64,000 nucleotides of DNA, taken from the NCBI GenBank assembly GCA_963734115.1, contig CAVTFV010000008.1, positions 211,581 to 275,580 on the forward strand, in the 5' to 3' direction. Every line of letters starts with the position of its first letter. The first letter of the stretch is position 1. The position numbers were made by a program, and so were the translations under genes. Source of the DNA: an uncultured Acidobacteriota bacterium. Its GTDB lineage: Bacteria; Actinomycetota; Acidimicrobiia; Spongiisociales; ZC4RG35. Of the stretch, positions 20,359 through 41,995 are shown one piece after another. Below the pieces are notes generated by a model, which worked only from the letters and a program-made list of their open reading frames with translations, was not told the DNA's origin and did not search any database.

Positions 20359-20397
20359 AAACGACCTCCAGATCGCGCCTGCGGTGGAGCCTATCCC

Positions 20398-22084: not shown

Positions 22085-24793
22085 CTAACCGGTGTTTCGC
22101 ATCCCGGCCGCGATCCCGTTGACGGTGAGGAGGAGGGCGCGGTCGAGGTCGTCGCCCACCTCGCCGTCCCGGCTGCGGGCGAGGAGGGATACCTGAAGGT
22201 AGCTGATGGGGTCGAGATAGACGTCGCGCACGCCCAGGGTGCGTCGCAATAGCGGCAGATCTCCCAACAGGTCCGGTTGGTGGCGAAGGGCGAGGATCTC
22301 CTCGGTGGCCAGCTCGCACTCGGCCCGGATCAGGTCCAGAAGCCCGCGATGCTCCTCCGCCACCAGGCTGGCCACATAGCGGCCCGCTATCTCGAGATCG
22401 GTCTTGGCCAATGTCATCTCGACATTGGAGAGGAACGTCTGGAAGAAACCCCATTCTCGTGCCATCTCGTCCAGCACATCGCCGAATCCTGCCTTCCTGG
22501 CCGCCCTGATCCCGGTTCCGACCCCGAACCAGCCAGGGACGATCTGGCGGGTCTGGGTCCAGCCGAACACCCAGGGGATGGCCCGGAGGTCCTCGATTCC
22601 GCCCACGCCACCGGGGCGTCGGGAGGGCCGGCTCCCCAGGTTGAGACGGCCCAGCTCCTCGACCGGGGTGGAGCTCAGGAAATAGGGGACCAGGCTTGGG
22701 TGCTGGACGAAGTCCCGGTATGACGAGTAAGCCTCGGCGGAGAAGAAGTCCATGGCCTCGGTCCATCGGTCGAGTGTCTCTTTGGGCTTGCGTGAGCGCC
22801 GATGAAGAAGCGAGGACTCCAGGACCGCGGAGAGGGCGAGCTCGAGGTTTCGGGCGGCGATGGCAGGGTGCCCGTATTTCTCCGAGATCACCTCGCCCTG
22901 CTCGGTGACCTTCAATTCACCGTCCACGGTGCCAAACGGCTGGGCCAGGATGGCGGCGTTGGTAGGCCCACCCCCGCGACCGATGGTGCCTCCGCGGCCG
23001 TGGAACAGCCGCAGATGGACTCCGTGCCGCTCGGCGACGTTCCGCATCGAGCGTTGGGCCTTGTAGATCTCCCATTGCGATGTGGTGATCCCGCCCTCCT
23101 TGTTGGAGTCGGAGTAGCCGAGGACGACCTCCTGGCTGTTGCCCCGGAGCTCGAGGATCTGTCGGTAGGGGGGATCATTGAAAAGAGCCTCCAGGAGTCC
23201 GCCGGCGTTCCGGAGATCGTCGATTGTCTCGACCAGGGGCACCAGACCGATCCGGGCGATGCCTCGATGAAGGTCGATCAGACCGGCCTCCCGGGCCAGA
23301 ACTGCCGTCTCGAGGACGTCGGCGGGGCTCTCGGTCATCGAGATGATGTACGACTCGATGACCTGATCCCCATAGAGGTCCTGGGCCTCCCTGATCGAGC
23401 GAAAGGCGCCGAGGGTGAGATCTGCCTGCTCGCTCAGCGTTGTGGTCAGGCCGCTCAGAGGCCGGCTGCCTTGTAGCTCGGCCGAAAGCACGTTGGATCG
23501 CAGGTCGTCCGCCATCGTCCGGTAGTCGACACCGACCAGGGAGAACAACTCGGTGACTGCGTCGCGATGCTTGCTCGCGTGCTCGCGGACATCGAGGGTC
23601 GCCATTTGAAATCCAAACGTCTCCACCGACCGACGCATCCGAGACACGGCCCCGTGGGCGATCAATTCCCCGCGGGCGCGGGAGAGTGACTCCGCCATCA
23701 GGTCGAGATCGGCGATGAGCTCATCGGGGTGGGCATAGTCCCTGCGATCGAAATGGGGCAGGCCTTGCTGAAGCCGCCGGTTGGTGTTGACGAGTCGGGC
23801 CCGGATATAGGAGCACTCGAGGCGGTAGGGCTCGGCAGCCGTTCGTCGACCCTCGCGCTGCCAGACCTCGGGTAGCGCCTCGCGGTCCGATGCCAAGGAC
23901 GCCCTCATCTCGTCACTGATCGGTGCCAGGCGCTCGGACACCGAGAGCTCGTCGGCGAGTTCTTCGATGAGTCCGATGAGGTGGCGGATTCCGCGATCGT
24001 GCTGGAGGAGAAGGGTTTCGAGTGTGGTCTCCGGAGTGACGCCAGGGTTTCCATCACGATCGCCCCCCACCCATGACCCGAATCGGATGGGGCTCCTGCC
24101 GACGACGACTCCAAGCCGAGCCATCTCGAGTGCCACTCTCTCGCTCAGCGCGGGCATGACCTCCGATGCGATCTGCACCAGGTAGTAGAGGGCGGAGCGG
24201 GCCTCCTCGACCGGGTTTGGCTTCTCGAGCCGCAGCTCGTCGGTCTGCCAGATTTGATCGATCAACTCGGCGGAGCGGCGGTCCACGAGGATCAGATCGG
24301 AATCAGCCGCGTCGAGTCGCTGCCCGATCAGCTCGGCGAGGCGGGCGGTCTTGGTCAGTATCGAACGTCTTGCCGCTTCGGTGGGATGGGCCGTGAACAC
24401 CGGCCTCATCTCGAGTCTTTGCAGGACCTCGGCCAGGACATCGGGCTCGACGCCGGCCTCGAGGACGCGGTCAACCGTGGCCGAGAGGCCGAGCTCGGCG
24501 ATGGCGAGCTGGTCGATCCGGTGGACCTGCTCGGCGACATTGGCCAAATAGAAGTAAGTGGTGAACGCCCTGACCAGCGGGATCACCTCGTCGATCTCCA
24601 GATCGGCGAGCCGGTGGTCGAGTTGTGCAGCAGCCTCGGTGCTCCCGCCCCGGCGGGACGACTTGCCCAACGCTCGGACCTCTTCGACCAGTTCGAGGAG
24701 CTCGGGGCCGTGCTGACGAACCAGGGCATCGCCTAGCTGGTTGCCGAGACGTCTGATGTCGGCCCGAAGTGTCTCATCCGAGGTGGGTGTCAC
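22085..24793 (-). CDS. ppc: phosphoenolpyruvate carboxylase
   Basis: 902 aa with VFTAHPTE and FHGRGGTIGRGGGP motifs. GTG start. Confidence 0.95.
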   Translation of the reverse strand: MTPTSDETLRADIRRLGNQLGDALVRQHGPELLELVEEVRALGKSSRRGGSTEAAAQLDHRLADLEIDEVIPLVRAFTTYFYLANVAEQVHRIDQLAIAELGLSATVDRVLEAGVEPDVLAEVLQRLEMRPVFTAHPTEAARRSILTKTARLAELIGQRLDAADSDLILVDRRSAELIDQIWQTDELRLEKPNPVEEARSALYYLVQIASEVMPALSERVALEMARLGVVVGRSPIRFGSWVGGDRDGNPGVTPETTLETLLLQHDRGIRHLIGLIEELADELSVSERLAPISDEMRASLASDREALPEVWQREGRRTAAEPYRLECSYIRARLVNTNRRLQQGLPHFDRRDYAHPDELIADLDLMAESLSRARGELIAHGAVSRMRRSVETFGFQMATLDVREHASKHRDAVTELFSLVGVDYRTMADDLRSNVLSAELQGSRPLSGLTTTLSEQADLTLGAFRSIREAQDLYGDQVIESYIISMTESPADVLETAVLAREAGLIDLHRGIARIGLVPLVETIDDLRNAGGLLEALFNDPPYRQILELRGNSQEVVLGYSDSNKEGGITTSQWEIYKAQRSMRNVAERHGVHLRLFHGRGGTIGRGGGPTNAAILAQPFGTVDGELKVTEQGEVISEKYGHPAIAARNLELALSAVLESSLLHRRSRKPKETLDRWTEAMDFFSAEAYSSYRDFVQHPSLVPYFLSSTPVEELGRLNLGSRPSRRPGGVGGIEDLRAIPWVFGWTQTRQIVPGWFGVGTGIRAARKAGFGDVLDEMAREWGFFQTFLSNVEMTLAKTDLEIAGRYVASLVAEEHRGLLDLIRAECELATEEILALRHQPDLLGDLPLLRRTLGVRDVYLDPISYLQVSLLARSRDGEVGDDLDRALLLTVNGIAAGMRNTG

Positions 24794-24852: not shown

Positions 24853-25929
24853 TTATTCGTCCTCGGGTCGTTGCTTGTGGACCCTTCCCTCGATCCCGTG
24901 GAGCGAGAGACCGGTGCCATGTCCATAGCGAACCATGGTCATCTCGGCCAGGATGGAGACCGCCACCTCCTGCGGGCTCTCGGCGCCGATATCTAGGCCT
25001 ACCGGGCCCCGCACACGGGCTATGTCCTCCTCCGAGAAACCCATCTCATGCAGTCGCCCGACTCTGAGATCCTGCGTTCGACGGCTCCCCATGCATCCGA
25101 TGTAGCGCACCGGGCTCTTCAGACGCGGCCTCCAGCACCGGGTCTTCGTGGGGCGGGGCATGAGACAGGATGACCACCCATGTACGCCGATCGAGATCGA
25201 CTTGGCCGATGACCCTCTCCGGCCACCCGACCAGGACCCGGGCGGTAGGGAAGCGCTCCGGTGTGGCGAAGGCGCCCCGCGAGTCGATCACCGTCACCCG
25301 GTAGCCCATCTGGCCGGCGAAGTTGGCGAGAGCCTGACCGATATGGACCGCGCCCACGATCAGCATCTCCTGGGGCGGGGCGAGCGACTCGATGAACACC
25401 CCATGGGGTGGGTACTCCATGGCACGGTGCTGCTCATGATCCATGAGCACCAGGGCATCCGCCGTCACATCGGCGGCGATCTCCGATGGGAGCTCCCCGG
25501 ACACCTGCTGACCGGTGGAATCGAGAACCACCTTGGACCCCAATGATGGTCCGTCGACGAAGGTGACGACTGACCCGTACTCCTCGCGATCGAGGATGCC
25601 CTGGACCGCCTCGAGCGGCTTCACCAGGGCTCGATGAAGACGTCGATGGTCCCGCCGCAGGCCATGCCTACTTCGAAGGCGTCGTCGTCGGCGATCCCGT
25701 AGGTGACGGTCTTCGGCTTGCCCGACTCGATCACCTCTTGGGCGTGGAGGAAGACATCGTTCTCGACGCACCCGCCACTGACCGACCCTTCCATGTCTCC
25801 GGCATCCGAGACCAGGAACTTGGAGCCCTCGGGCCTGGGGGCGCTGCCCTGGACCCGGATCACCGTTGCGACGGCGACCTTCTTCCCTTCCGATGCCCAT
25901 CGGTTGCGCACTTCGATCTGATTTCTCAT
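24853..25929 (-). pseudogene. XdhC/CoxI-family accessory protein with two compensating frameshifts
   Basis: N-terminal domain (ORF 25621..25929, ...[12 protein letters not shown]). The middle Rossmann part (VKPLEAV...[29 protein letters not shown]) is in another frame. The C-terminal part ([10 protein letters not shown]...[19 protein letters not shown]) returns to the first frame. The first break maps to a C-run (FIEP-L-VKPLE is restored by adding one C). Confidence 0.7.
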
Positions 25930-27038
25930 CGCCTCGCTCCAGCCACTGAATCGAGCACCCGCACCACCCCCCGGAAGTCACTGACGCTAGCGGCGGGCAA
26001 TAGCCGATCGATGCTCGGCATCACCGCCTGCATGCCACGCGTCAGCGGCTGATATGAGGCCCTCGCCGCGAGGGGGTTGAGCCAGATCACCTGATGGACC
26101 GATCGGGCGAGTCGGGCCATTTCCGACGAGAGGACGGCGGGGTCGCCGCAATCCCAGCCGTCGGAGAGAATCATCACGACCGGGCCGCCCCTGGCCAGAC
26201 GACGGCTCCACCGTCGATTCCACTCGGCGAGAGCGTCACCGATCTGGGTCCCCCCCGACCAGTCGGTCACTCGATCGGCGACGCGGGCCAGTGCGGCCTT
26301 GGTGTCCCGACGGCGCATGTCCTCGGTGATGCGGCTGAGATGGGTGGAGAAGGTGAAGATCTCGACTTCACGCAGCCGACGCTGGGCAGCGTGGGCGAAT
26401 ACGAGGAATATGTCGGCGTACTTCTCCATCGACCCGGAGATGTCGGCGATGATGATGAGGGGGCGCTCCTTCCGCCGGCGCTGCTTCCAGCTCATAGTCA
26501 TCATGTCCCCGGTCGGTCCCACCGCGTCCCGCAGGGTGCGGCGCAGGTCGGGCCTGACCCCATCGCCGGGTGTCCATCGCCGGGTCCTGTAGTCGGTGGG
26601 ATGCCACATCATCGTCATCACCAGGCGTCGCGCCTCCTGGAGGTCCTCGTCATCGAGATCGGCGAAATCCCTGGTTGAGATCCTCTCCACCGCCGAGGCG
26701 CCACCCTGGTCGGTGACCGGCGCCACGCTGGACCCGGCCGAGCCCTGGATCGCATAACTCGACGCGTCGGTGCCCGGCTCATCCGGGTGCCGGTCGACCC
26801 ATGATGGCAGGAGGCGCCCGAAGAAGATCTCGAACTCCCGGTCGAACACCGGGATCTGATCGGGGTCGGTGACGGTCAACGAGCGCAGAGCGGCTTCGGC
26901 CTGCGACCGCCGGCTCATGTCGACCATGGAGAGGGCGCGGGCCATGTCGGTGGTCTGGTCGGAGGTGACCGTGAGACCGCGATTACGCAGGGCCGCTGAG
27001 AAGAGACTCAATTGGTCGATCAGCCCGGGCCGGCTCAT
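25926..27038 (-). CDS. coxE: VWA-domain CoxE-like accessory protein
   Basis: DISGSM MIDAS motif, C-terminal VWA. The start ATG overlaps the coxD stop (ATGA). Confidence 0.85.
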
Positions 27039-27913
27039 CCCACCAAGCTGTCGACTCCGGCGGACCGGACCATGTCGATGTCGTCCTTGTACTTGAGCAC
27101 GACGCCGATCGTGCGGTCGATCGTTGCCGGAGACAGCTCGCCCGCCTCCAGCAAACGCAACGACTCTGCCCAATCGAGTGTTTCTGCCACTCCGGGGGGC
27201 TTGAAGAGCTCCATCTCCCTGAGCCTCCTCATCGCCTCGGCCAGAGATACCGCCAGACGCCCCTCGAGATCGGGCACCTTGCGGATGATGATCTCGGCCT
27301 CCTTGGCCGCGGTTGGATAGTCGATCCAGTGATACACACAACGACGTTTGAGGGCGTCGTGTATCTCCCGGGTGCGGTTCGACGTGAGGACGACGATCGG
27401 CCTGCTCAGTGCCTTGATCGTTCCGATCTCGGGAATCGTTATCTGGAAATCGGACAGCAACTCGAGGAGAAAGGCCTCGAACTCCTCGTCCGCCCGGTCC
27501 AACTCGTCGATGAGAAGCACCGGACGGTGCCCCTCGGTGCTGGCCTCGATCGCCTGGAGCAGGGGACGAGCGATCAGGTAGTCCCGACTCATTATGTCGT
27601 CGGGGGTGGCTTCAGCGCCCTGTCCCCTTGCCTCGAGAAGGCGGATCGCCATCATCTGGCGGGCGTAATCCCACTCGTATAGCGCCTGGCCGACGTCCAG
27701 ACCCTCATAGCACTGGAGACGGATGAGCTCGGTCCCGCCCATGGCCGCCAGGACCTTGGCCACCTCGGTCTTGCCAACTCCGGCCTCCCCCTCCAGGAAA
27801 AGCGGTCTCCCCAGTTGAACTGCGAGGTGGATGGCCACTACGAGGCTCTCGTTGGCGAAGTAGTCCTGCTCGTCGAGACGTTTCTCGAGCTCGCCGATCG
27901 TGTCGGGGATCAC
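27035..27913 (-). CDS. coxD: MoxR-family AAA+ ATPase (CoxD-like)
   Basis: Walker A GEAGVGKT, Walker B LLIDELDRAD, and the MoxR C-terminal domain. Confidence 0.9.
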   Translation of the reverse strand: MIPDTIGELEKRLDEQDYFANESLVVAIHLAVQLGRPLFLEGEAGVGKTEVAKVLAAMGGTELIRLQCYEGLDVGQALYEWDYARQMMAIRLLEARGQGAEATPDDIMSRDYLIARPLLQAIEASTEGHRPVLLIDELDRADEEFEAFLLELLSDFQITIPEIGTIKALSRPIVVLTSNRTREIHDALKRRCVYHWIDYPTAAKEAEIIIRKVPDLEGRLAVSLAEAMRRLREMELFKPPGVAETLDWAESLRLLEAGELSPATIDRTIGVVLKYKDDIDMVRSAGVDSLVG

Positions 27914-27948
27914 CGGATGAAGCCTAAACGTCGCCGTACAATCGGTCT

Positions 27949-28872
27949 GTGTACGGGGTGGCGCTCACGGTTCTCGCCTGTCTCCGCTCGGGAACCCGCG
28001 CCGACGTGGCGTGGCTGGTCGAGGCGGAAGGATTGCCCGTGACGGACTGGTCCGATGCAGTCGTGTTCACCCCTGGCGGCGGCCGGATCGGAGGATTGGC
28101 GGGCGGCGCAGTGGATGGGCAGCTGGCCGACGAGGCGGGTCGAAGGGACGTCGGTCGACTGGTCGATATCGAGGTGAGCGAGATCGACGCCTTGATCGCC
28201 GGCCTGTCGTCGGCCGGCTCCGCAAGATGCCTGCTCGTGCCGGCAGACACGCTTCCTCGAGAACTCTGGGACCTGGCGGTCGCACGGGAGCCGATCTGTC
28301 TGATCTGCAATGTCGAAGGCGGCGAAGTGGGAGACGTCAGCGTCTACACGACCGCCACGGCGGCGGGTGGCGGGGAAATCGTCGAGGGTTTGTTCGCTGC
28401 CGGCAAGAGCGGGTCGACAGTCACCGGAGATCAGGTGATCTCTGTGTTTCGGGCAGTGCCTCAGTTGGTCGTGGTGGGGGACACCGACGTCGCCACCGCT
28501 CTGGTCGAGCTGGCATCCCGGATCGGCTGGAACGCCCGCCTGGCGGCCGACTCCGGTTCGGCCACCGGCATGATCGCCACGCTGTCGGGTCAGGACAAGG
28601 TCGTGGTGACCGCGCACGATCTCGAGTTTGCGGGGACTGCGCTCAAGGCTGCCCTGGAGAGCGATGCCGGCTACATCGGGGCGATGGGCGCTCGACGGAT
28701 GCAGGAGAACCGTGCCGACTGGCTCGCCTACCGGGGGGTGACGGATCTCTCTCGAATCCATGGTCCCGCCGGACTCGACATCGGCGCCGAAACACCGGCC
28801 GAGATCGCTGTCTCGATCCTCGCCGAAGCGATCGCAGAGAACGCTGGGAATCATGTCGTTTCCAGCAGCTAG
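27949..28872 (+). CDS. XdhC/CoxI-family molybdoenzyme maturation factor (intact)
   Basis: 307 aa with the C-terminal YIGAMGARRM...GLDIGAETPAEIAVSILAE signature. Divergent from coxD. Confidence 0.85.
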   Translation: MYGVALTVLACLRSGTRADVAWLVEAEGLPVTDWSDAVVFTPGGGRIGGLAGGAVDGQLADEAGRRDVGRLVDIEVSEIDALIAGLSSAGSARCLLVPADTLPRELWDLAVAREPICLICNVEGGEVGDVSVYTTATAAGGGEIVEGLFAAGKSGSTVTGDQVISVFRAVPQLVVVGDTDVATALVELASRIGWNARLAADSGSATGMIATLSGQDKVVVTAHDLEFAGTALKAALESDAGYIGAMGARRMQENRADWLAYRGVTDLSRIHGPAGLDIGAETPAEIAVSILAEAIAENAGNHVVSSS

Positions 28873-28937
28873 CCATGGAGTACACAGGTGACCGTCACTA
28901 CACTCGATGATGGACGAGACCTTCCCGGGAGGACTGG

Positions 28938-29189
28938 ATGACCGCCCAATACGAGACCACGGCAGAGGCCCTGAAGTCGATTTGGATCAGCAGTCACGAC
29001 CACGACCCGCTCGACGAGGACTGCAGCCCCACCAAGGCCTGTCGCAACATGAAAGACGTCACATTCGACGGTTATGCCGAGCCGGGCACTGACCTCGGCG
29101 CCGCCTGGCGGGCCAAGCTGGCGCGGGAGGGAAAGCTGTCCACGTCCGGGGGGAGTGTCCGCGACCTGATCCTCGGTCAGGGCGAATAG
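28938..29189 (+). CDS. hypothetical small protein (83 aa)
   Basis: ATG-initiated ORF between xdhC and the second MoxR gene. I do not recognise a domain. Confidence 0.4.
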   Translation: MTAQYETTAEALKSIWISSHDHDPLDEDCSPTKACRNMKDVTFDGYAEPGTDLGAAWRAKLAREGKLSTSGGSVRDLILGQGE

Positions 29190-29230
29190 CCCTGGGCAAC
29201 GACGACCTCTCACCCACGCGGGATCACGCC

Positions 29231-30121
29231 GTGAGCGCCGATGGGGCATCCACACCGCCTGCGAGCGTCGATGAGGTGATCGCGCGTCTCGGCGAGGGTC
29301 GCTATCTGGCCGACCGCGGCCTGGCCACCGCCGTCTACGTCGCGCTGACACTGGGTCGCCCGCTCCTCCTCGAAGGTGAAGTGGGAGTGGGCAAGACAGA
29401 AGTGGCCAAGGTTCTGGCCACGGTCCTGGGGCGCCGCCTCATCCGTCTCCAGTGCTACGAGGGGATAGACACCAACCAGGCCCTCTACGAGTGGGACTAC
29501 GCCCGACAGATGCTCCAGATCAGGGCGCTGTCGGAACGCGAGCTGGCCGAAGACCATGTCGACAAGCTCTTCGGACCCAAATTCCTGCTCGAGCGTCCGC
29601 TGCTGACCGCGGTCAGGGAAGGTGACCGGGCGGTGCTGCTCATCGACGAGATCGATCGGGCCGACGACGAATTCGAGGCCTTCCTGCTCGAGTTGCTGTC
29701 CGACTATCAAATCACCATCCCGGAGATCGGCACTATCTCTGCCTCAGCCCCCCCGCTTGTCATCCTCACATCCAATCGCACCCGCGAGCTACACGACGCG
29801 TTGAAGCGGCGGTGTCTCTATCACTGGGTCGGATATCCGAGCGCCGAACGCGAAGTGGAGATCGTCCTGGTCCGTGCCCCTGGTGCCAGCGAAACCCTGG
29901 CCCGCAAGGTCGTCGCCGCCGTCGGCCATCTCCGCCAGCTCGATCTGGCAAAGCCACCCGGGGTTGCCGAGACGCTCGACTGGGTCGCCACTTTGAACGT
30001 TCTCGGCTCGGAAGACCTCGATGCCGGGACCGTGGAGGACACCCTCGGTGCCGTGGTCAAGGAGCGCGACGACCTCGAAACGGTCCTCGACCACCTCGAG
30101 GAGCTCGTCGCCGATGGCTGA
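29231..30121 (+). CDS. MoxR-family AAA+ ATPase, second copy
   Basis: Walker A GEVGVGKT, Walker B LLIDEIDRAD. About 60% identical to the first copy by eye. Confidence 0.9.
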   Translation: MSADGASTPPASVDEVIARLGEGRYLADRGLATAVYVALTLGRPLLLEGEVGVGKTEVAKVLATVLGRRLIRLQCYEGIDTNQALYEWDYARQMLQIRALSERELAEDHVDKLFGPKFLLERPLLTAVREGDRAVLLIDEIDRADDEFEAFLLELLSDYQITIPEIGTISASAPPLVILTSNRTRELHDALKRRCLYHWVGYPSAEREVEIVLVRAPGASETLARKVVAAVGHLRQLDLAKPPGVAETLDWVATLNVLGSEDLDAGTVEDTLGAVVKERDDLETVLDHLEELVADG

Positions 30122-31265
30122 ACAGTCGATCGCGGTTGATGACCGGACGTCTTTCATAGGGATGCTGGTCGGCTTCGGGGACGAGCTGCGGGACGCTGGA
30201 GTCCCGGTCGGCTCGGGAGATGTCCTCACCTATTGCGCAGCGATGGCGTTGCTCGACCCGGGCGATGTCCTCGATCTCTACTGGGCCGGCCGAACCTCGC
30301 TGGTGACACGGCGGGATCACATCCCGACATACGACCGTGTGTTCCGTACCTATTTCCTCGACCAACCTGCGAAGCCGAAGGGTCCGGCCCTCGCGATTCT
30401 GAAGCAGTCGCTCATCGAGAACCAATCGGTGATCGAGGTACCCGCCGCCGAGCCGGCACGGCCGGGCAAGGAGGAGGAGGCACGACTCGGGCTGATGGCC
30501 TCCGACATCGAGATCTGGCGGAACAAGGCATTCGCCGCCTGCACCGATGAGGAGCTCGCGGCGTTGCGCCGGATCATGAACCAGGTCAAAGTGATCCCAC
30601 CCCGACGACGCTCCCGACGAACGACCCAGTCTCGGTCCGGGAGCAGACCCGACCTTCGTCGCACCGTCCGCACCACGATGCGCACTCATGGCGAGCCCTC
30701 GGAGTTGTTTTGGCGACAGCGACGGCTTAAGACGCGACCGTTGGTCCTCATCCTCGATGTGTCGGGCTCGATGGCCGATTACTCCCGCAACCTCCTCCAG
30801 TTTGCCTATTCGACCCGGCGGGCTGCCACCAAGGTCGAGGTGTTCTGCTTTGGGACGCGGCTCACTCGCATCACGCGGGCCTTGGAGCGACGTCGCCCTG
30901 ACGATGCTCTGGACCAAGCGGCGAAGTCGGTCTTCGACTGGGAGGGCGGTACCCGGATCGGCGAATCGATCGACACCTTCGTCCGCCAGTGGGGTCGCAG
31001 GGGGATGAGCCGGGGAGCGATCGTCGTCATCTGTTCGGATGGGCTCGATCGTGGTGACCCGGCGGTCCTGGCCGCGGCCATGGAGCGGCTGTCCCGGCTA
31101 TGCCACAAGGTGGTGTGGATGAACCCCCACAAGGGCAATGACCCTGAGTTCAAGCTGACGACGCTGGGGATGATGGTTGCGGAGCCATACATCGACTTGC
31201 TTCTCTCCGGGCACGATCTGGCCAGTCTCGAGGAGCTCGCCGAGCGGCTGCCGGAGTTGAGGTGA
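30114..31265 (+). CDS. VWA-domain CoxE-like protein, second copy
   Basis: I placed the start at the internal ATG (MAEQSIAVDD), overlapping the MoxR stop by 8 nt. DVSGSM MIDAS motif. Confidence 0.85.
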   Translation: MAEQSIAVDDRTSFIGMLVGFGDELRDAGVPVGSGDVLTYCAAMALLDPGDVLDLYWAGRTSLVTRRDHIPTYDRVFRTYFLDQPAKPKGPALAILKQSLIENQSVIEVPAAEPARPGKEEEARLGLMASDIEIWRNKAFAACTDEELAALRRIMNQVKVIPPRRRSRRTTQSRSGSRPDLRRTVRTTMRTHGEPSELFWRQRRLKTRPLVLILDVSGSMADYSRNLLQFAYSTRRAATKVEVFCFGTRLTRITRALERRRPDDALDQAAKSVFDWEGGTRIGESIDTFVRQWGRRGMSRGAIVVICSDGLDRGDPAVLAAAMERLSRLCHKVVWMNPHKGNDPEFKLTTLGMMVAEPYIDLLLSGHDLASLEELAERLPELR

Positions 31266-31269
31266 GCCA

Positions 31270-31563
31270 GTGAGATGGAGTGTCTCCCTCCAGACCGAGG
31301 GTGATCGTGTGATCGAGCTAGACGAGGTGGTCGAGCTCGCTGACGCGGTGGCCGCCAGCGATGGGATCGCTTCGGGGATGGGCACCTATGGATACGGGGT
31401 CCAGGTCGTCGTTGAGGCCGATGACAGTGGTCACGCCGTGGAGCTGGCCATGGCGGTGCTCGCCGGGGCCGTGGAGAAGTCGGGTCTCCCGTCCTGGCCG
31501 GTGGTGACCATGGAGACCATCGCCGAGGACGAAGAGATGTTCTACGACATGGTCGAAGAGTGA
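31270..31563 (+). CDS. hypothetical small acidic protein (97 aa)
   Basis: The ORF lies 4 nt after the VWA gene. No recognisable motif. Confidence 0.45.
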   Translation: MRWSVSLQTEGDRVIELDEVVELADAVAASDGIASGMGTYGYGVQVVVEADDSGHAVELAMAVLAGAVEKSGLPSWPVVTMETIAEDEEMFYDMVEE

Positions 31564-31605
31564 TCCGTCTCGGATCGCTCGCCGGGTATCCCTTCGAGGG
31601 GCCGC

Positions 31606-32034
31606 GTGTTCTCGGGGGTTGGACCGCGCCGGAAGCGCCCGCCGTGTTTCGCGGTCATGTACAAGCCGGACCCGTCCCGTAAGCCCGAGGAGTACGGCGG
31701 TCCTCTACGTCGGGCATTCCGACGATCTCTCGACGCGAACGGCTCCCGTTCAACCACCCCAGCGCCGCATGCTGGCTCGAGCCGGGTGGGTGGGAAGAAG
31801 TTCGACCTCTACATCGGCACCTACGAGGCGCCCGGCGCCAACTCTGCGGCACCGCGAGCAGATCGTCCGAGAGCTGGTCGCGATCTACAAGCCGGGCTGC
31901 AACCCCGATCAGTACGACCAGGCCTGGGAGGATCACTGGATCGGGGATTACCAGACCCCGGGCACCACCGGCCCGCTGACGACTCGACGAGAGCCGCCTG
32001 GGGCCGGTGGCTGAAGATACCGACTAAGGCGTGA
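31606..32034 (+). pseudogene. decayed ORF with coding-like segments alternating between two frames and an internal repeat (AVMYKPDPSRKPEEYGG / VAIYKPGCNPDQYDQAW)
   Basis: ORFs 31606..32034 and 31619..32014 overlap in different frames. Each carries plausible segments (a YVGHSDDLSTR-like segment in one frame) and low-complexity junk in the other. Confidence 0.3.
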
Positions 32035-33437: not shown

Positions 33438-33522
33438 TCAGTTCCTGTCCGGATACGACACCCCGTTGACAGGATTCTGTTCGAATCTCCACCCCTATGC
33501 CTGTAGGCGGGGATACAAATGA

Positions 33523-33552
33523 GGAACGGGTCGGCGTGTGCCGACCCGTTCC
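33523..33552 (-). terminator. perfect 13-bp GC-rich hairpin (GGAACGGGTCGGC-loop-GCCGACCCGTTCC) downstream of copy 2; candidate intrinsic terminator
   Basis: Sits in the roughly 150-bp spacer between copy 1 and copy 2, about 40 nt after the copy-2 stop. On the minus strand it is followed by UCAUUUGUAU. Confidence 0.4.
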
Positions 33553-33590
33553 GTGGATAAATCGATGGTGGCTGCCCGACTAGGGGGTGA

Positions 33591-35143: not shown

Positions 35144-35176
35144 TCGACTAAGAGCACGGAGAGGATGCGACTCGAC

Positions 35177-35588
35177 CTACGAAGGCTCTGACGTATCGGC
35201 CAGGGGGGCGTGGGCCCTGCTCCCTGGGCCGTCCGGCATGTAGCCGATGGCGTCATGCAGACGTGAGCGGCGACGACCGGATGCGGGTACCGCCGGGCCT
35301 CGCTCCGGCACCGTCTCGGGGTCGTAGGTGGCCCCGACCACGATCTTCTCGGCCATCCCATATAGGAGGGGGAGTGCGGCTGCGACGACGCCTCCCGTGC
35401 GGTTCACGTGCTCGAGATTGCCTTCGATCGAAGCGGCGTTGCCGCCGATCTTCTGCACCAGGTCGTTGCACTCCTCGAGATTGGTGGCGATCCGGGTGAG
35501 CTGCCCCCCGACGATCCATAGATAGATCGCCAGCCCGGCGATGAGCAGGACGATGTCGACGACGGTGAAGATGCACCAGGTTGCTCAT
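35177..35588 (-). CDS. small single-pass membrane protein (DUF948-like architecture), 5th of a tandem array; 1-nt frameshift just after the start
   Basis: ATG at 35588 with AAGGTG 6 nt upstream, overlapping the previous stop (ATGA). Removing one base near 35570 gives MSNLVIFTVVDIVLLIAGLAIYLWIVGGQLTRIATNLEECNDLVQKIGGNAASIEGNLEHVNR, continuous with ORF 35177..35458. Confidence 0.5.
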
Positions 35589-35878
35589 GAGCGCACCTTC
35601 CCCAGCACCCGGCCCAGGAAGAGATGGTGCTCGAGACCCTCTGCGAGGACCAGGTCGACTCCGGCAGCAGTGGTGTTCAGCAGCTCGGCATCAGCGGTGT
35701 TGGCCTCGGCCTGGGTCAGGGTCGCTTTGATGTTCTTGACTCTCTTGTCGATTCTGTGGACGAGGAGCACAAGGATCGTGAGCAAGAGCGCTACGGCGAC
35801 CACGACGGCGAGGCCGGCCCAGTTGGCGATCCGCCACAGCGTCTCCTGATTCTCGGTCAGGGCAAAGATCACGGTCAA
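35585..35878 (-). CDS. small single-pass membrane protein (DUF948-like), 4th of array
   Basis: 97 aa with TM helix WAGLAVVVAVALLLTILVLLV followed by a polar helical region. Confidence 0.55.
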   Translation of the reverse strand: MTVIFALTENQETLWRIANWAGLAVVVAVALLLTILVLLVHRIDKRVKNIKATLTQAEANTADAELLNTTAAGVDLVLAEGLEHHLFLGRVLGKVRS

Positions 35879-36135
35879 CCTCCCAACCTCTGCCGGCCCC
35901 GCTTCAAACCCTCGATCACGTTGATCGCCATGGTGTTGGTGGTTGCCAGGTCGGCCAACGCCGCGGTGTTTCGCACCGACTCCTGGAGGCTTTCGTCGAT
36001 CAGCTGGGCCTCGTTCCCGATCTTGCGGGCCAGGACCAGGATCGGCACCACCAGCGCGACCACGACCAGGACGACGACGATCCCGATGATGTATCCGACC
36101 AGCCAGCCCGTGTTTCCCTCGAATAGTTCGCTCAT
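35875..36135 (-). CDS. small single-pass membrane protein (DUF948-like), 3rd of array
   Basis: 86 aa with TM helix WLVGYIIGIVVVLVVVALVVPILVLA followed by a polar helical region. The start overlaps the upstream stop. Confidence 0.55.
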   Translation of the reverse strand: MSELFEGNTGWLVGYIIGIVVVLVVVALVVPILVLARKIGNEAQLIDESLQESVRNTAALADLATTNTMAINVIEGLKRGRQRLGG

Positions 36136-36359
36136 ATCGATTCGCAGAAGTCGCTGACGGGCTTGAGGTTGGCGTTGACCGAGCCCACCACCGCGGGCAC
36201 CGTGCTGGTCTTGTCGGCCACCACTCCGACGCCGCCGGTGAGGGCCCGGAGCGTCCCGAGAGTGGCGCTGAGGTGGCCGATGACCCGCATCAGGCCGAGG
36301 GCCGCCGCGGCGATGATGAGTGTCGCGATCATCAGGGTCACGATTGCTGCTGCAGGCAT
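36132..36359 (-). CDS. small single-pass membrane protein, 2nd of array
   Basis: 75 aa with TM helix AIVTLMIATLIIAAAALGLM. Confidence 0.5.
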   Translation of the reverse strand: MPAAAIVTLMIATLIIAAAALGLMRVIGHLSATLGTLRALTGGVGVVADKTSTVPAVVGSVNANLKPVSDFCESI

Positions 36360-36374
36360 ATGACTCGTCCTCTC

Positions 36375-36629
36375 CTAACCCAGCAACTTCGCCACGGAGC
36401 CGGCGTAGCGGACTGCGCCGGTGGAAACGTCTTCGATCGCCTTGTCGGTGACCGCCAGCAGCTCAGGCACCCTGTCGACCTCGCCGATCAGGGCGACGCC
36501 ACCGCCGAGGATCTCATCAGAGGCACCCCTGATCCGCTCGAGAGCTGCCAGCACCCGATTGAGAAGTGCGACCAACACCGGCACCACCACCAGCAGCAGC
36601 ACCGCATTTCCGATCCACCACCAAGTCAT
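36375..36629 (-). CDS. small single-pass membrane protein (DUF948-like), 1st of array
   Basis: I placed the start at the internal ATG. MTWWWIGNAVLLLVVVPVLVALL TM helix followed by a polar region. It begins 10 nt after coxG. Confidence 0.55.
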   Translation of the reverse strand: MTWWWIGNAVLLLVVVPVLVALLNRVLAALERIRGASDEILGGGVALIGEVDRVPELLAVTDKAIEDVSTGAVRYAGSVAKLLG

Positions 36630-36639
36630 CAGCGCCTCC

Positions 36640-37221
36640 TCAGATCCGGTCGGGTTGGTAGGGGAGAAAGAACCGGCGCCCGACTCTCTTGAGCGCCATC
36701 CATGCCGCCGCGATGGCGATACCGAAGCCACTGGCGGATTTCGTCTGGATCTGGTCGGGTGAGACACCGCGGTCGTAGGCATCGATCCGCGTCTGCATGT
36801 TCGTGGCGAAGTCCCGCATCATCACCGCGCTCACGTCGCTGATCATGCCCCGCCCGTACTGCGCAGCGGCGCCGGACAACTCCAGGTCCTGCTCCACCTC
36901 CACCCTCGTTCCGTTGGCGGTGGGGACGAGGCGGGCAGTCAGCCCGAGGTTCGCCTGACCCCGGCCCTTGTCGTCGGCGCCCGAGGCGTCGACGACGATG
37001 GTCCTGTTGGCGTGATCGCGCTCCTTTACCGCGGCTTGTCCGGCGAATTGCATCTGGACTGGACCGAGCCGGATGCCGACATTCCCTGCGTATTGATCGG
37101 GGCCGATCTCGTCGGTGAGCGAGGCGCCAGGGAGACAGGCGGCGACCTGGGGGATGTCCTGACAGAACTCCCACACCTTGTCTACGTCGACCGGCACCTC
37201 GAAGTCATGTTTGATCAGCAT
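36640..37221 (-). CDS. coxG: CO dehydrogenase subunit G (SRPBCC family CoxG)
   Basis: 193 aa beginning MLIKHDFEVPVDVDKVWEF, with a C-terminal hydrophobic anchor. Confidence 0.85.
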   Translation of the reverse strand: MLIKHDFEVPVDVDKVWEFCQDIPQVAACLPGASLTDEIGPDQYAGNVGIRLGPVQMQFAGQAAVKERDHANRTIVVDASGADDKGRGQANLGLTARLVPTANGTRVEVEQDLELSGAAAQYGRGMISDVSAVMMRDFATNMQTRIDAYDRGVSPDQIQTKSASGFGIAIAAAWMALKRVGRRFFLPYQPDRI

Positions 37222-37222: not shown

Positions 37223-38173
37223 TCATCCCCTGACTGTCATGTACGCGGAGGGGTCTTTCTCGAAGGCCGCCCGGCATCCCGGGCAGCAGAAGTAATAGGT
37301 CTGACCCTCGTATTCGAACGGGCGACTGCTCTCATCGGCAGGCACGGTCATGCCGCAAACGAGGTCTACGGCGGTGCCTGCGGCTGCGTGCTCATGGCCA
37401 TGACCGGAATGGTGGTGCTCGATGGGCATCGCGTTCGATTCCGCCAGGGGCGCGGGGTCGAAGGCACCCTTGGCCCGAAGCTCCACCAACTCGGCAAGAA
37501 CGGAGACTGCGATTTCGGGATGTGACGTGTGGCCGAGGTCGAGGCCTACGGGGACCCTCACTTGATCCAAGAGGTCACGGGGGACACCCCGTTCGGCGAG
37601 GTAGCCGAGGACCGCCTCGCCACGCTTGGACGAGGCTACGAGCCCCACGAAGGCCGGGCGCGCGTTCACTGCCTGCTCGACCGCCTCCTCGTCACCGTGA
37701 CCCTGAGTGGCGACCACCACGACCGACCAGCTGCCGACATGAGCGGTCTTGAAGTCGGGTACATCGACCAAGTCAGCGCGCCAGCCGACCCCGGCCGCAA
37801 GCTCCACCAGGGTGGCGGCCATTGGGGATCTGCCCACGACCACCAGGTGGGGGCTGGGAAGTACTGGCTCGACATAGAGCTGCAGCGCGCCCTCGGACTG
37901 GCACGACATCTGGACGAACGTCATGCCTTCGGCAACCTCGCCGAACTGGTCGGGGTCGCCGAGCAAGATCAGACGCGGGACCCGTTCTTCGATGGCGCGC
38001 TGCGCCTCCCGAACGACGACCGGCTCGGCACAGGCCCCGCCGATCCAGCCGTGCATCTGGCCGTCGGCAGTGATGATGGCCCGCGACCCTTGCTGCCCTG
38101 AGGAGGGCGCCTGGCGCCAGACCACGGTGGCCAGGGCGAATTCGACGCCCTGGCGGGCGAGATCGCTGGCCAT
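37223..38173 (-). CDS. XdhC/CoxF-family maturation factor fused to a C-terminal YHS (TRASH-like) metal-binding domain
   Basis: XdhC core (VPVGLDLGHTSHPEIAVSVLAE), a His-rich linker (HHHSGHGHEH), then CGMTV...YEGQTYYFCCPGCRAAFEKDP. The start has GGAGG 9 nt upstream. This gene was artificially joined to coxL in the 1183-aa ORF 37223..40774. Confidence 0.8.
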   Translation of the reverse strand: MASDLARQGVEFALATVVWRQAPSSGQQGSRAIITADGQMHGWIGGACAEPVVVREAQRAIEERVPRLILLGDPDQFGEVAEGMTFVQMSCQSEGALQLYVEPVLPSPHLVVVGRSPMAATLVELAAGVGWRADLVDVPDFKTAHVGSWSVVVVATQGHGDEEAVEQAVNARPAFVGLVASSKRGEAVLGYLAERGVPRDLLDQVRVPVGLDLGHTSHPEIAVSVLAELVELRAKGAFDPAPLAESNAMPIEHHHSGHGHEHAAAGTAVDLVCGMTVPADESSRPFEYEGQTYYFCCPGCRAAFEKDPSAYMTVRG

Positions 38174-38208
38174 CTCGATCATCCTCCACCCATCGGCAGG
38201 CTGGGCAC

Positions 38209-40593
<2,385 letters not shown>

Positions 40594-40597
<4 letters not shown>

Positions 40598-41118
40598 CCT
40601 TGATCCTCCAGCTTCTTTGCCGCCCACATGACCGCCTTGACGATGTTCTGGTAGCCGGTGCAGCGGCAGAGATTGCCGCTCAATGCCCATCGGATCTCGT
40701 CCTCGGTCGGGTTCGGGTTCTCCTCGAGCAGGGCCTTGGAGGCCATCATCATCCCGGGAGTGCAGAACCCGCACTGGAGCCCGTGCTCCTCCTTGAACCC
40801 TTCCTGTATGGCGTGCAGCTCACTGGGACCTGCCAGGCCCTCAACGGTCATCACGTCATGCCCGTCGGCTTGGACGGCGAACATCGTGCAGCTCTTCACC
40901 GGCGTGCCGTCGAAGAGCACGGTGCATGCCCCGCAGTTGGAGGTGTCGCAGCCGGTGTGGGTGCCGGTGAGATGGAATCCCTGACGGAGGAGATGGGCGA
41001 GGACGAGACGGGGCTCGACCACGGCTGTTCGGGTCTCGCCGTTGACCGTGACTGTGATCTGCCTCGTCGGCGTCTCCGCGGCCGCCCCCGGGCTGACCTC
41101 TTGGAACAGGCTGGTCAT
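40594..41118 (-). CDS. coxS: CO dehydrogenase small [2Fe-2S] subunit CoxS
   Basis: 174 aa with both cysteine clusters ([11 protein letters not shown] and [10 protein letters not shown]...CRCTGY). Confidence 0.95.
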
Positions 41119-41119: not shown

Positions 41120-41995
41120 TCAGGCCGCCTCCTCTTCCGATCGAATCAACCCGGTCAGGATCCTGCTGGTGAAGACGCTGACCAGCTGCTTCTTGTAGGA
41201 GGCGCTGCCTCGATGATCGGTCCGGGGTTGGGCTGCCTGCGCCGCCAGCGAGGCGGCCTCACCGATCACATCGGCTGTGAGCGAACTGCCAACCAGCACC
41301 TGGGCGGCATCATCGGCTGAGATGGTCGAAGGACCCACTCCGGTCAGGCCAATGCCCGCCCTGGTGACCTCACGGCCGTTTCGGTCGACGGAAACGGCGA
41401 CCCCGACCGTGGCGAAATCGCCCACGCGGCGCTCCAACTTCAGATAGCCGCCAGCCGGCTCGCCCTGGGGGGCGGGAGCGATCGCCTCCACCACCACCTC
41501 GTCGTAGGCGAGGTTTGTCTGGAACGGGCCGCGGACGAGCTCCTTGACCGGGATTGTCCGCCGGCCACCTTGACCCTGTGCCACAACCGAGGCATCCAAC
41601 GAGACCATCACCGATGCCCAGTCTCCCTGTGGGTCGGCGTGACACAGGGAACCGACCAGAGTGCCGCGATTTCGCACGATCGGGTCGGCGACGAGTGGCG
41701 CCGCCGCAGCCATGGTGGGCTGATGGCCGGCCAGCAACGAAGAGCGCTCCAGGTCGGCGTGACGGCACAGCGCCCCGACGTGGATCGATCCGTCGGCATC
41801 GATCCGGTGATAGTCCAAACCGGCAATCTCGTTGATGTCGACCAGCATCTCCGGGGAAGCGAACCGGAGCTTGATCATCGGGACCAGGCTCTGGCCTCCG
41901 GCCAGCACCTTGGCATCGCCACCCCCGTCGGCCAGGAGCGCGGAAGCTTCCTCGATCGACCTGGGAGCCTCGTAGCGAAATCGAGAGGGGTAGAT
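41120..41995 (-). CDS. coxM: CO dehydrogenase medium FAD-binding subunit CoxM; probable ATC initiation codon
   Basis: FAD-binding motifs ([28 protein letters not shown]). The N-terminus (I)[20 protein letters not shown] aligns to M-I-P-G-S-F-D-Y... of characterised CoxM, so the ATC at 41995..41993 sits at the initiator position. AAGGAGG lies 5 nt upstream. There is no in-frame ATG/GTG/TTG for 75 codons upstream. Confidence 0.85.

Follow-up and report, generated by a model that had tools for sequence, protein, structure and literature searches.

[quoted passage not shown] Our main reading, to which we assign a probability of about 0.6, is that we are dealing with the accessory half of a supercluster for a form I [MoCu] CODH, conserved in actinobacteria, and that both MoxR-VWA pairs are its maturation chaperones. 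The gene identities, their paralogy, their conservation and their linkage to a single form I CODH are established. The cluster is a known maturation system in an unusually elaborate form, and not a novel kind of system.

Gene content of the window

The window, i.e. the whole 64-kb stretch of DNA that was analysed, contains the features listed in Table 1. Pfam and NCBIfam agree on two complete MoxR-VWA pairs, as the first-pass annotation had described them. The first pair belongs to a minus-strand unit (module 1, MoxR1-VWA1-split XdhC), and the second to a plus-strand unit (module 2, XdhC2-s83-MoxR2-VWA2-s97-p149). That these are real genes is supported by GC3 values of 0.79-0.83, overlaps of 4-8 nt between neighbouring genes, and dN/dS of 0.02-0.16 against a relative of 93% identity. 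Both pairs combine low dN/dS (0.04-0.07; 0.05 for VWA1) with unbroken Walker A/B and MIDAS motifs, and therefore look functional. The MIDAS motif reads DISGS in VWA1 and DVSGS in VWA2, with DxSGS in all sampled sequences of either protein, and Walker A/B motifs are present in 27/27 MoxR1 and 69-70 of 70 MoxR2 sequences.

Table 1. Features of the window, with positions counted from its first letter (L001 is a related locus; aa, amino acids)
Feature	Position	Strand	Description and evidence
PEP carboxylase	22085-24793		902 aa; large ORF beside the region; profile match
XdhC1_C	24853..25624	-	Module 1; Rossmann-domain half; PF13478 on two reading-frame pieces
XdhC1_N	25621..25929	-	Module 1; 102 aa; XdhC_CoxI half; PF02625 recorded for equal-length L001 gene
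VWA1	25926..27038	-	Module 1; 370 aa; CoxE-like VWA; PF05762, E 1e-54
MoxR1	27035..27913	-	Module 1; 292 aa; CoxD-like AAA+ ATPase; AAA_5/AAA match
Divergent intergenic region	27914..27948		35 bp, between MoxR1 and XdhC2
XdhC2	27949..28872	+	Module 2, gene 1; 307 aa; divergent XdhC paralogue; PF13478, E 1e-26
s83	28938..29189	+	Module 2; 83 aa; conserved; GGGAGGA ribosome-binding site upstream
MoxR2	29231..30121	+	Module 2; 296 aa; CoxD-like AAA+ ATPase; AAA_5 match
VWA2	30114..31265	+	Module 2; 383 aa; CoxE-like VWA; PF05762, E 4e-56
s97	31270..31563	+	Module 2; 97 aa; acidic, conserved, cysteine-free
p149	31560..32009	+	Module 2, final gene; 149 aa; conserved; intact in L001
p136, p95, p86, p75, p84	35177..36629	-	Five small single-pass membrane-protein genes, end of cox operon
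CoxG	36640..37221	-	SRPBCC protein; PF06240, E 4e-16
XdhC_YHS	37223..38212	-	CoxF-type XdhC; PF02625, PF13478, PF04945
CoxL	38209..40597	-	Form I Mo-Cu CODH large subunit; Pfam MoCoBD_1/2
CoxS	40594..41118	-	2Fe-2S subunit; 62% identical to O. carboxidovorans CoxS
CoxM	41120..41944	-	FAD subunit, start approximate; PF00941, PF03450, tblastn with O. carboxidovorans CoxM

Three XdhC genes had been called at first pass, one intact, one fused to a YHS domain and one doubly frameshifted. The first two descriptions hold, but the third does not: XdhC1 is naturally split into two genes, which overlap by 4 nt, and its C-terminal half carries one 1-nt insertion (position 25124) that is absent from the relatives L001-L003, where XdhC1_C is an intact ORF of 256 aa. 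XdhC1_N is 100% identical to its L001 counterpart at the amino-acid level, and an equivalent two-gene split is annotated in Azospirillum B510. In XdhC2, the Rossmann domain is the only part recognised. XdhC_YHS bears a His-rich linker and, at its C-terminus, a metal-binding domain of the YHS/TRASH type, and matches CoxF of O. carboxidovorans at 35% identity (124-146 bits), against 42 bits for CoxI. Further single-base insertions affect CoxL, which has a window-specific one at 38634 (the protein is 795 aa and intact in L001), and p149, which is broken by five +1 insertions with its peptide segments preserved in shifted frames. The insertions in CoxL, XdhC1_C and p149, if real, would mean that this particular genome is losing the system.

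The two small ORFs s83 and s97 had been described as familyless orphans. Familyless they are, as neither has a Pfam, NCBIfam or PDB match, but orphans they are not, with 523 (s83) and 1052 (s97) homologous clusters at 90% identity, dN/dS of 0.02 and 0.16, respectively, and conservation in related genomes. An invariant motif, C29-S-P-x-K-x-C35-R-N-M38, runs through s83, with T at position 32 in at least 90% of sequences; its Cys-x5-Cys-x2-Met pattern could possibly point to a copper role, and its AF2 model is of low confidence (pLDDT 50). For s97 the fold is ferredoxin-like (beta-alpha-beta-beta-alpha-beta). Neither p149 (Pfam, PDB) nor the five small membrane proteins (Pfam) matched a known family in the databases named; the order p136-p95-p86-p75-p84 is kept in L001 and L004, and the genes are found in nearly all loci. 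Between MoxR1 and XdhC2, a consensus sigma-70 scan found no promoter; a TACAAT box precedes the XdhC2 GTG by 6 nt, a position that suggests a leaderless XdhC2 transcript.

Candidate client and ancestry of the two pairs

The idea that the CODH genes adjoin the pairs was rejected: the 902-aa neighbour is PEP carboxylase, and CoxMSL lie at 38.2-41.9 kb. The xanthine-oxidase family is represented in the window by this form I CoxMSL alone, the remaining content being housekeeping genes, and no other subunit of the family was detectable within the 64 kb, nor in the 20-kb loci of relatives. CoxL, which has the AYRCSFR form I signature and is 54% identical to its O. carboxidovorans counterpart, is thus the single candidate client window-wide, and the CODH is the inferred target of both pairs. 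[quoted passage not shown] In rearranged relatives the extra pair travels with the cox genes, and not with the PEPC/UPRT flank.

The pairs are old paralogues of distinct lineages, in line with the initial view that more than a simple recent duplication was at hand. MoxR1 and MoxR2 share 57% identity and VWA1 and VWA2 35%. In trees for which longer Mdo-linked proteins (389 and 506 aa) served as outgroup, clade bootstrap was 100% for MoxR1, VWA1 and VWA2 and 98% for MoxR2, and exclusive sisterhood of the two copies received 8% (MoxR) and 0% (VWA). A recent copying event or an assembly artefact is an extremely improbable source of the duplication; the many single-base insertion errors in the window do indicate imperfect assembly quality, but such low identities, the separate ancient clades and a layout that recurs in independent assemblies from several samples all speak against it.

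Module 1 is, in our reading, a second, anciently diverged cassette of a generic type that stands beside other xanthine-oxidase-family enzymes, and one that joined the cox cluster chiefly in Acidimicrobiia. The identity of MoxR1 is 57% with the MoxR of the SLM cluster in Azospirillum and 50% with CoxD of O. carboxidovorans; in the trees, MoxR1 and VWA1 fall with SLM-type (form II-like) cassettes at a weak bootstrap of 42-50%. For the split XdhC1, the nearest XdhC genes are those in the SLM cluster of Azospirillum and in the pAO1 cluster, with 47% identity of XdhC1_N to the Azospirillum N-half (38% to O. carboxidovorans CoxI) and 48% of XdhC1_C to the C-half, its nearest match. These affinities, the shared gene order and split XdhC of the cassette beside the S-L-M cluster of Azospirillum B510, and the occurrence in other phyla of form I clusters with just one pair, or none nearby, would suit an unlikely but substantial alternative, in which module 1 matures another xanthine-oxidase-family enzyme encoded elsewhere (e.g. 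a form II CoxL-like one) and its proximity to cox is a matter of history. Against it stand the lack of such a second enzyme in the window and in the 20-kb loci, and the persistence of module 1 beside cox through at least three arrangements, one of which is a tightly packed operon with module 2.

Arrangement in relatives and proposed division of labour

The comparison set consisted of about 70 related genomes, with loci retrieved via s97 alone. Throughout these, the module 2 set is invariably convergent to coxMSL-XdhC_YHS-coxG-p84...p136, and its members are close to universal, both in Acidimicrobiia-type loci (s83 38/39, MoxR2 39/39, VWA2 40/40, p149 38/38) and in Nanopelagicales-type loci (30/30, 32/32, 34/34 and 38/38, respectively). 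Where enough flank was available, XdhC2 was present in 27/28 and 10/10 loci of the two types, relocated beyond coxM in the latter. Module 2 is, in our reading, the universal, cox-linked CoxD/CoxE equivalent. The small ORFs accompany pair 2 and the cox operon generally, and not the duplication, being found also in Nanopelagicales-type loci without pair 1.

Despite rearrangement, 19-23 of 26 Acidimicrobiia-type loci keep module 1 no more than 10 kb from the cluster, where it stands divergent from XdhC2 (in the window, L001 and further loci), upstream of coxM in the same orientation (L008, L014, L026, L038), or with MoxR1-VWA1 directly upstream of, and co-oriented with, XdhC2-s83-MoxR2-VWA2-s97-p149 (L021, L040, L046, L050). 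Junctions of a 4-nt overlap and a 9-nt gap make the L040 set one eight-gene operon with both pairs. Given this single operon, and the co-oriented placement upstream of second-pair genes or coxM elsewhere, the proposal that the extra pair is a specialised chaperone system of its own is improbable. MoxR1-VWA1 was not found within 10 kb in L004, L035 and L067, and the majority of Nanopelagicales-type loci have one pair only; loci of this kind show that the second pair is non-essential for form I CODH of such type. Independently, some Nanopelagicales have a different second pair beside s83, and behind it genes for cofactor synthesis (MoaC and MoaB-like).

On the main reading, by analogy with O. 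carboxidovorans CoxD/CoxE/CoxF and other MoxR-VWA systems, each AAA+ ring would spend ATP remodelling folded apo-CoxMSL, and the VWA partner would dock the ring, via its MIDAS motif, to the client or to an XdhC-type carrier. With its generic split XdhC, module 1 may then carry out molybdopterin cofactor insertion and sulfuration (or sulfur protection), and module 2 with the CoxF-type XdhC_YHS, possibly helped by s83, may deliver Cu(I), completing the [CuSMoO2] site. Such a division between cofactor insertion/sulfuration and copper insertion would parallel the published model, which places CoxD in sulfuration and CoxE/CoxF in copper supply, and the difference in XdhC type (CoxF-type XdhC_YHS versus generic split XdhC1) fits it (PMC4240915).

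Two other readings keep both pairs on the CODH. The pairs may be redundant or condition-specific isoforms (copper, oxygen, starvation) doing the same CoxD/CoxE job, which we regard as very unlikely: neither pair is broken, purifying selection acts on both, the two are members of the CoxD/CoxE-like subfamily (45-61% identity to all references), and the divergent transcription units of the window could permit separate regulation, but the 35% identity of the VWA adaptors implies different docking surfaces, each pair is tied to a distinct XdhC type, and the shared operon of L040-type genomes argues against differential regulation. A little less probable again is a heteromeric two-ring machine of both MoxR proteins with their VWA partners, comparable to the BchI/BchD and CobS/CobT chelatase motors. 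ATP-driven chelatases do pair AAA+ with AAA+-VWA subunits, and some genomes encode both pairs in one operon; against this, Nanopelagicales-type genomes mostly have pair 2 alone, and translational coupling links each MoxR gene to the VWA gene of its own pair.

Comparison with known systems

In NorQ/NorD, CbbQ/CbbO and RavA/ViaA, an AAA+ MoxR ring and a VWA adaptor likewise remodel a folded client for cofactor or metal insertion; these systems differ in their clients and subfamilies, and an XdhC partner is absent from them. The best NCBIfam model for both MoxR proteins is MadB (NF047784), at 282 bits against a cut-off of 475, and MadC (NF047783) matches both VWA proteins weakly, far below its 600-bit cut-off. 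MadB and MadC probably denote the longer MoxR/VWA pair encoded behind mdo, the gene for NDMA-dependent methanol dehydrogenase, in Mycolicibacterium and Rhodococcus; the Mdo-linked proteins, at 389 and 506 aa, exceed those of the window.

MoxR-VWA-XdhC cassettes adjoin S-L-M-order (form II-like) enzymes of the xanthine-dehydrogenase family in Azospirillum sp. B510 (pAB510c), Ralstonia, Microvirga and Halococcus, as well as the nicotine-pathway Kdh genes on pAO1. Module 1 shares with the Azospirillum cassette the order MoxR-VWA-XdhC_N-XdhC_C, split XdhC included; unlike the S-L-M cassettes, it stands, in the window and its relatives, beside a form I (Mo-Cu) CODH. Elsewhere one pair suffices for form I clusters (O. 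carboxidovorans, Deinococcus, Natronorubrum, Marivivens, Paraburkholderia), and in Thermomicrobium and Nonomuraea no pair was found within 15 kb. Clustering of MoxR2 with proteobacterial or Deinococcus form I CoxD had 0% bootstrap.

The closest system is the form I CODH of O. carboxidovorans (Oligotropha/Afipia), encoded on megaplasmid pHCG3 as coxMSLDEFG...I (PMC4240915, PMC3471820). The window differs from it in having two MoxR-VWA pairs instead of one; accessory genes in separate units convergent to coxMSL, and not downstream of coxL; a CoxF homologue that bears a YHS/TRASH domain; three XdhC paralogues, one split in two genes; and at least eight extra conserved small genes (s83, s97, p149 and the five membrane proteins), without the MHYT-type membrane proteins CoxB/C/H/K. 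The protein families are nevertheless equal, with MoxR2 58% identical to CoxD and VWA1 and VWA2 about 29-38% identical to CoxE, and the order of module 1 is that of coxD-coxE-xdhC.

Gene content and reading frames of the cox region

Genes were selected by third-position GC, since the window is about 65% G+C, and Pfam and NCBIfam identified each member of the two MoxR-VWA pairs proposed by the first-pass annotation as a real gene. Pair 1 (MoxR1 and VWA1) belongs to module 1, together with the split gene XdhC1, and pair 2 (MoxR2 and VWA2) to module 2, together with XdhC2 and three small proteins named by their length (s83, s97 and p149). Genes for a CO dehydrogenase (CODH) lie 7-10 kb downstream of the pair region on the minus strand. 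A 902-aa ORF adjoining the region was considered as CoxL and rejected, its Pfam match being PEP carboxylase. Two tandem SIMPL/DUF541 genes at 19732-21177 (minus strand) are unrelated to the cox cluster. A consensus scan for promoters returned none, and terminators were at background level.

Features of the two accessory modules and the cox structural operon, in window coordinates
Feature	Coordinates	Strand	Assignment
XdhC1_C	24853-25624	-	C-domain gene, 256 aa (intact in relatives), PF13478; 4-nt overlap with XdhC1_N
XdhC1_N	25621-25929	-	N-domain gene, 102 aa, PF02625
VWA1	25926-27038	-	VWA_CoxE (Pfam, NCBIfam)
MoxR1	27035-27913	-	MoxR-type AAA+ ATPase (Pfam, NCBIfam)
XdhC2	27949-28872	+	Intact XdhC, PF13478 (Rossmann domain)
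s83	28938-29189	+	Small ORF without family match
MoxR2	29231-30121	+	MoxR-type AAA+ ATPase (Pfam, NCBIfam)
VWA2	30114-31265	+	VWA_CoxE (Pfam, NCBIfam)
s97	31270-31563	+	Small ORF without family match
p149	31560-32009	+	Conserved 149-aa protein, no named family; start overlaps s97 stop codon by 4 nt
p136, p95, p86, p75, p84	35177-36629	-	Follow coxG in cox structural operon
CoxG	36640-37221	-	
XdhC_YHS	37223-38212	-	XdhC-YHS fusion: PF02625 + PF13478 + PF04945
CoxL	38209-40597	-	CODH subunit
CoxS	40594-41118	-	CODH subunit
CoxM	~41120-41944	-	CODH subunit

XdhC family domains were confirmed for XdhC1_N, XdhC1_C, XdhC2 and XdhC_YHS. Of the three XdhC genes counted earlier, the intact and the YHS-fused copies stand, whereas the copy described as doubly frameshifted is naturally divided into two genes. 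Both halves are intact in three relatives (L001-L003) with ~93% identity to the window, and Azospirillum sp. B510 is annotated with the same division. The sole lesion of the window's copy, relative to L001-L003, is a 1-nt insertion at 25124 in XdhC1_C. Comparison with the ~93%-identical relatives also revealed five consecutive +1 insertions in p149 (31649, 31698, 31735, 31781 and 31845), one single-base insertion in CoxL (38634), and several in p136 and neighboring sigma/anti-sigma genes (34429-35572); XdhC1_C, CoxL, the sigma/anti-sigma genes and p136 all have intact counterparts in relatives from three samples. Because the p149 peptide is kept piece by piece across the shifted frames, and its nucleotide identity (94%) is the same as that of the flanking genes, we read these insertions as probable sequencing or assembly errors rather than decay. 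Genuine, very recent lesions are a conceivable alternative; the nearest relatives of the window are long-contig MAGs.

Identity and ancestry of the MoxR-VWA pairs

Both MoxR proteins match Pfam AAA_5/AAA and consist of a single AAA+ module of about 290-300 aa. Their Walker A (GxxGxGKT) and Walker B (hhxDE) motifs are intact, and are kept in 27/27 MoxR1 and 69-70/70 MoxR2 sequences. Over nearly the full length, MoxR2 is 58% identical to Oligotropha carboxidovorans CoxD (297 bits) and MoxR1 50% (262 bits), and both are thus predicted members of the CoxD-like subgroup of MoxR-class AAA+ ATPases. For CoxD itself, ATP hydrolysis and the need for it in sulfuration of the CODH Mo site have been established by biochemistry and genetics (PMC3471820, PMC4240915). 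The VWA proteins score 185.8 and 190.4 bits against VWA_CoxE (PF05762; gathering cut-off 26.4), and carry the MIDAS motif (DxSxS) as DISGS in VWA1 and DVSGS in VWA2, with DxSGS present in every VWA1 and VWA2 sequence sampled. Each VWA gene lies directly downstream of its MoxR gene and overlaps it, by 4 nt (27035-27038) in pair 1 and 8 nt (30114-30121) in pair 2. Both pairs are intact, and their genes have dN/dS values of 0.04-0.07 against L001. An exact-sequence database look-up of the window MoxR2 returned no identical record.

Identity is 57% between MoxR1 and MoxR2 and 35% between VWA1 and VWA2, which sets the two copies as far apart as either is from its homologues of other phyla (45-61% for MoxR, 29-38% for VWA). 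Neighbor-joining trees (200 bootstraps) were built with 12 references, comprising sequences linked to form I (Mo-Cu) CODHs (Oligotropha, Deinococcus, Natronorubrum, Marivivens, Paraburkholderia), S-L-M-type (form II-like) cassettes (Azospirillum, Ralstonia, Microvirga, Halococcus), the pAO1 cassette, and methanol-dehydrogenase-linked sequences as the outgroup. The MoxR1 and MoxR2 clades received 100% and 98% support, with exclusive sisterhood at 8%, and the VWA1 and VWA2 clades 100% each, with exclusive sisterhood at 0%. MoxR1 and VWA1 grouped with proteobacterial S-L-M cassettes at 42-50%, and bootstraps for the deep branching order among CoxD-like clades were at most 64% in these 12-reference trees. 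From the identities and the separate clades we infer that the pairs are paralogues of ancient origin, which evolved together with their partners, and not a recent duplication; an artefact or a recent copy is refuted, and we assign it practically no probability.

Neither pair reached the NCBIfam cut-offs for MadB (281.6 and 282.2 vs 475 bits for the MoxR proteins) or MadC (65.2 and 76.5 vs 600 bits for the VWA proteins), and no relevant paper on a MadB/MadC AAA+/VWA pair was found. Two plasmids, of Mycolicibacterium chubuense NBB4 (L089, 6627-10694) and Rhodococcus sp. WAY2 (L100, 4624-8727), carry mdo, a gene for an NDMA-dependent methanol dehydrogenase, and after it genes for a longer MoxR protein (389-404 aa) and a longer VWA protein (506-508 aa), with both sets located near copper monooxygenase genes. 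These mdo-linked proteins probably correspond to the NCBIfam MadB/MadC family, and they exemplify CoxD/E-like pairs serving a non-molybdenum enzyme.

Conservation of the supercluster in related genomes

The first-pass annotation had described s83 and s97 as orphans of no recognizable family; they indeed lack a recognized family, but are conserved in related genomes, with 523 homologue clusters for s83 and 1052 for s97 (at 90% identity). Relatives of s97 occur across Acidimicrobiia, Nanopelagicales and related Actinomycetota, in at least 394 species-representative genomes. Without exception the best 80 loci come from MAGs, and most of their records are titled Acidimicrobiia, Nanopelagicales or Actinomycetota. 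The closest records (MFD* MAGs; L007-L015 and similar) are titled "uncultured Acidobacteriota bacterium", a label that is probably wrong, and slightly more distant relatives are all Acidimicrobiia/Actinomycetota. A tblastn search of s97 against 72,556 plasmids gave no match, and s97 is thus absent from plasmid-borne cox clusters, including pHCG3.

Gene presence was scored by tblastn of the intact L001 proteins against all loci, counting only those with sufficient flank. A supercluster is conserved, in which [XdhC2]-s83-MoxR2-VWA2-s97-p149 is convergent to coxM-S-L-XdhC_YHS-coxG-p84-p75-p86-p95-p136.

Presence of supercluster genes in loci with sufficient flank (p149, 76/76 together)
Gene	Acidimicrobiia-type loci	Nanopelagicales-type loci
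s83	38/39	30/30
MoxR2	39/39	32/32
VWA2	40/40	34/34
p149	38/38	38/38
CoxL	27/28	18/18

Module 1 lies at most 10 kb away in 19-23 of 26 Acidimicrobiia-type loci, either divergent from XdhC2, as in the window, or upstream of coxM and co-oriented with it (L008, L014, L026, L038). In a third arrangement (L021, L040, L046, L050), MoxR1-VWA1 is co-oriented with and directly upstream of XdhC2-s83-MoxR2-VWA2-s97-p149, and the split XdhC lies beyond coxM, on the far side. With junctions of a 4-nt overlap and a 9-nt gap, both pairs in L040 lie in one eight-gene operon; a heteromeric double-ring machine built from the two pairs nevertheless seems to us very improbable. MoxR1-VWA1 was not found within 10 kb in L004, L035 and L067. 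Three Nanopelagicales-type loci (L042, L044, L083) have a different second MoxR-VWA pair, divergent from s83. In the trees this pair makes up a clade of its own that groups weakly with the pAO1 cassette, and in the locus examined, L044 (4333-7626), MoaC and a MoaB/Mog-like gene come after the pair. Form I clusters of other phyla carry a single pair (Oligotropha, Deinococcus, Natronorubrum, Marivivens, Paraburkholderia), and none was found within 15 kb of the form I cluster in Thermomicrobium and Nonomuraea.

Between the convergent cox operons of the window lie two tandem ECF-type sigma-factor/anti-sigma-like gene pairs (32024-34988, minus strand). They occur only in its close relatives, the operons directly abutting in L004, L008, L014, L026 and others, and were inserted between the operons in the window's immediate relatives.

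Probable client enzyme, proposed maturation roles and comparison with described clusters

Oxidizing atmospheric CO with form I Mo-Cu CO dehydrogenases is a survival strategy in widespread use. To our knowledge, the building of the [CuSMoO2] site is known in outline only, from one proteobacterium. In the window, the subunit order M-S-L, the 54% identity of CoxL to O. carboxidovorans CoxL, and the form I active-site signature AYRCSFR, read in the intact L001 orthologue (97% identical to the window CoxL), identify CoxMSL as a predicted form I aerobic CO dehydrogenase of an uncultured organism represented by MAGs only.

It had been suggested that the extra pair might serve an MsrP-like enzyme (12405-13598). 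This client was rejected, because the protein belongs to the sulfite-oxidase family, outside the range of XdhC-type chaperones, which are specific to the xanthine-oxidase family (PMC2997495), and because module 1 tracks the cox genes, not that flank, in rearranged relatives. The MsrP-like gene, a membrane-extended Oxidored_molyb (MsrP/sulfite-oxidase-like) gene, sits beside a double-rhodanese gene (12405-14440), unrelated to the cox cluster. No other xanthine-oxidase-family subunit was detectable in the 64-kb window. By homology and linkage, both modules would mature the one form I CODH, a reading to which we give a probability of roughly 0.6. That module 1 instead serves a distant second client appears unlikely given its proximity to the cox genes.

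The three XdhC proteins are of different types. XdhC_YHS is of the CoxF type (35% identity; 124-146 bits to CoxF vs 42 bits to CoxI), and has in common with CoxF a short interdomain region and the Cys of its proposed copper site (M107CPSHGTM; PMC4240915). In addition, it has a His-rich linker (EHQHSDHGHAH) and, at the C terminus, a Cys-rich YHS/TRASH domain, predicted features that give independent sequence support to the role in copper handling proposed for CoxF (PMC4240915). XdhC1, the split protein, is generic, being closest to the Azospirillum split XdhC (47-48%), pAO1 XdhC and CoxI, and XdhC2 is a divergent third type with the Rossmann domain alone recognized.

In O. carboxidovorans, CoxD is reported to carry out ATP-dependent sulfuration of the Mo site within the folded apoenzyme, and CoxE and CoxF to supply copper (PMC4240915, PMC3471820). 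A division of labor between the modules is plausible because the two pairs are linked to XdhC proteins of different types, and because module 1 is similar to cassettes from copper-free relatives. We tentatively propose, as a possibility, that in Acidimicrobiia two AAA+/VWA machines, each dedicated to its own part, share the assembly of [CuSMoO2]. Insertion and sulfuration of Moco would fall to module 1 and its generic split XdhC, and module 2, with XdhC2 and the CoxF-YHS protein, possibly also s83, would insert Cu(I); s83 (Cys-x5-Cys-x2-Met) might be a Cu(I) or persulfide carrier and s97 (ferredoxin-like) an adaptor. Redundant or conditional isoforms, as two paralogous pairs beside one CODH could also be read, we consider improbable in view of the different XdhC linkages.

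The candidate carrier s83 has a dN/dS of 0.02, a good ribosome-binding site and an invariant motif (C29-S-P-x-K-x-C35-R-N-M38, with T at position 32 in at least 90% of sequences). It had no Pfam, NCBIfam or PDB match, and at pLDDT 50 its AlphaFold model is too unreliable to serve as a search query. Profiles of s83, s97 and p149 run against PDB sequences gave nothing significant, and neither s83 nor s97 matched known metallochaperone families, or folds with metal-binding residues (heavy-metal-associated and other copper chaperones). Apparent s97-p149 fusions among representatives were rejected as Rosetta-stone evidence, as they look like frameshifted read-throughs of adjacent genes. Three distant s97 homologues (P0360, P0366, P0377) join an s97-like N-terminal domain to a C-terminal HTH-like segment (…VGV.EAA.LLGVSRQRL…GPVW…), an extension without a Pfam match. 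The p136, p95, p86, p75 and p84 proteins, also named by their length in amino acids, each consist of a transmembrane helix at the N terminus and a helical tail after it, and their gene order is kept in nearly all Acidimicrobiia- and Nanopelagicales-type loci; these five, like p149, matched no family (no Pfam family for the five), and have no detectable mutual similarity.

Heterologous CODH production is hampered by the requirement for at least four assembly factors (PMC12202499, PMC4240915). If the modules act at different steps, sulfuration and copper insertion would become separable for study, and the cluster would also supply the set of parts with which to express high-affinity CODHs of actinobacteria; if the split is true, the cluster would amount to a CoxD/E/F pathway with its functions naturally separated. 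What is described here comes from comparative genomics and stays within a known system, and we found no description of its arrangement in the literature searched. Compared with described cox clusters, it keeps two paralogous MoxR-VWA pairs beside a single form I CODH, has three XdhC types, of which one is a YHS fusion, encodes at least eight conserved unnamed small proteins, and has its accessory genes convergent to the structural operon.
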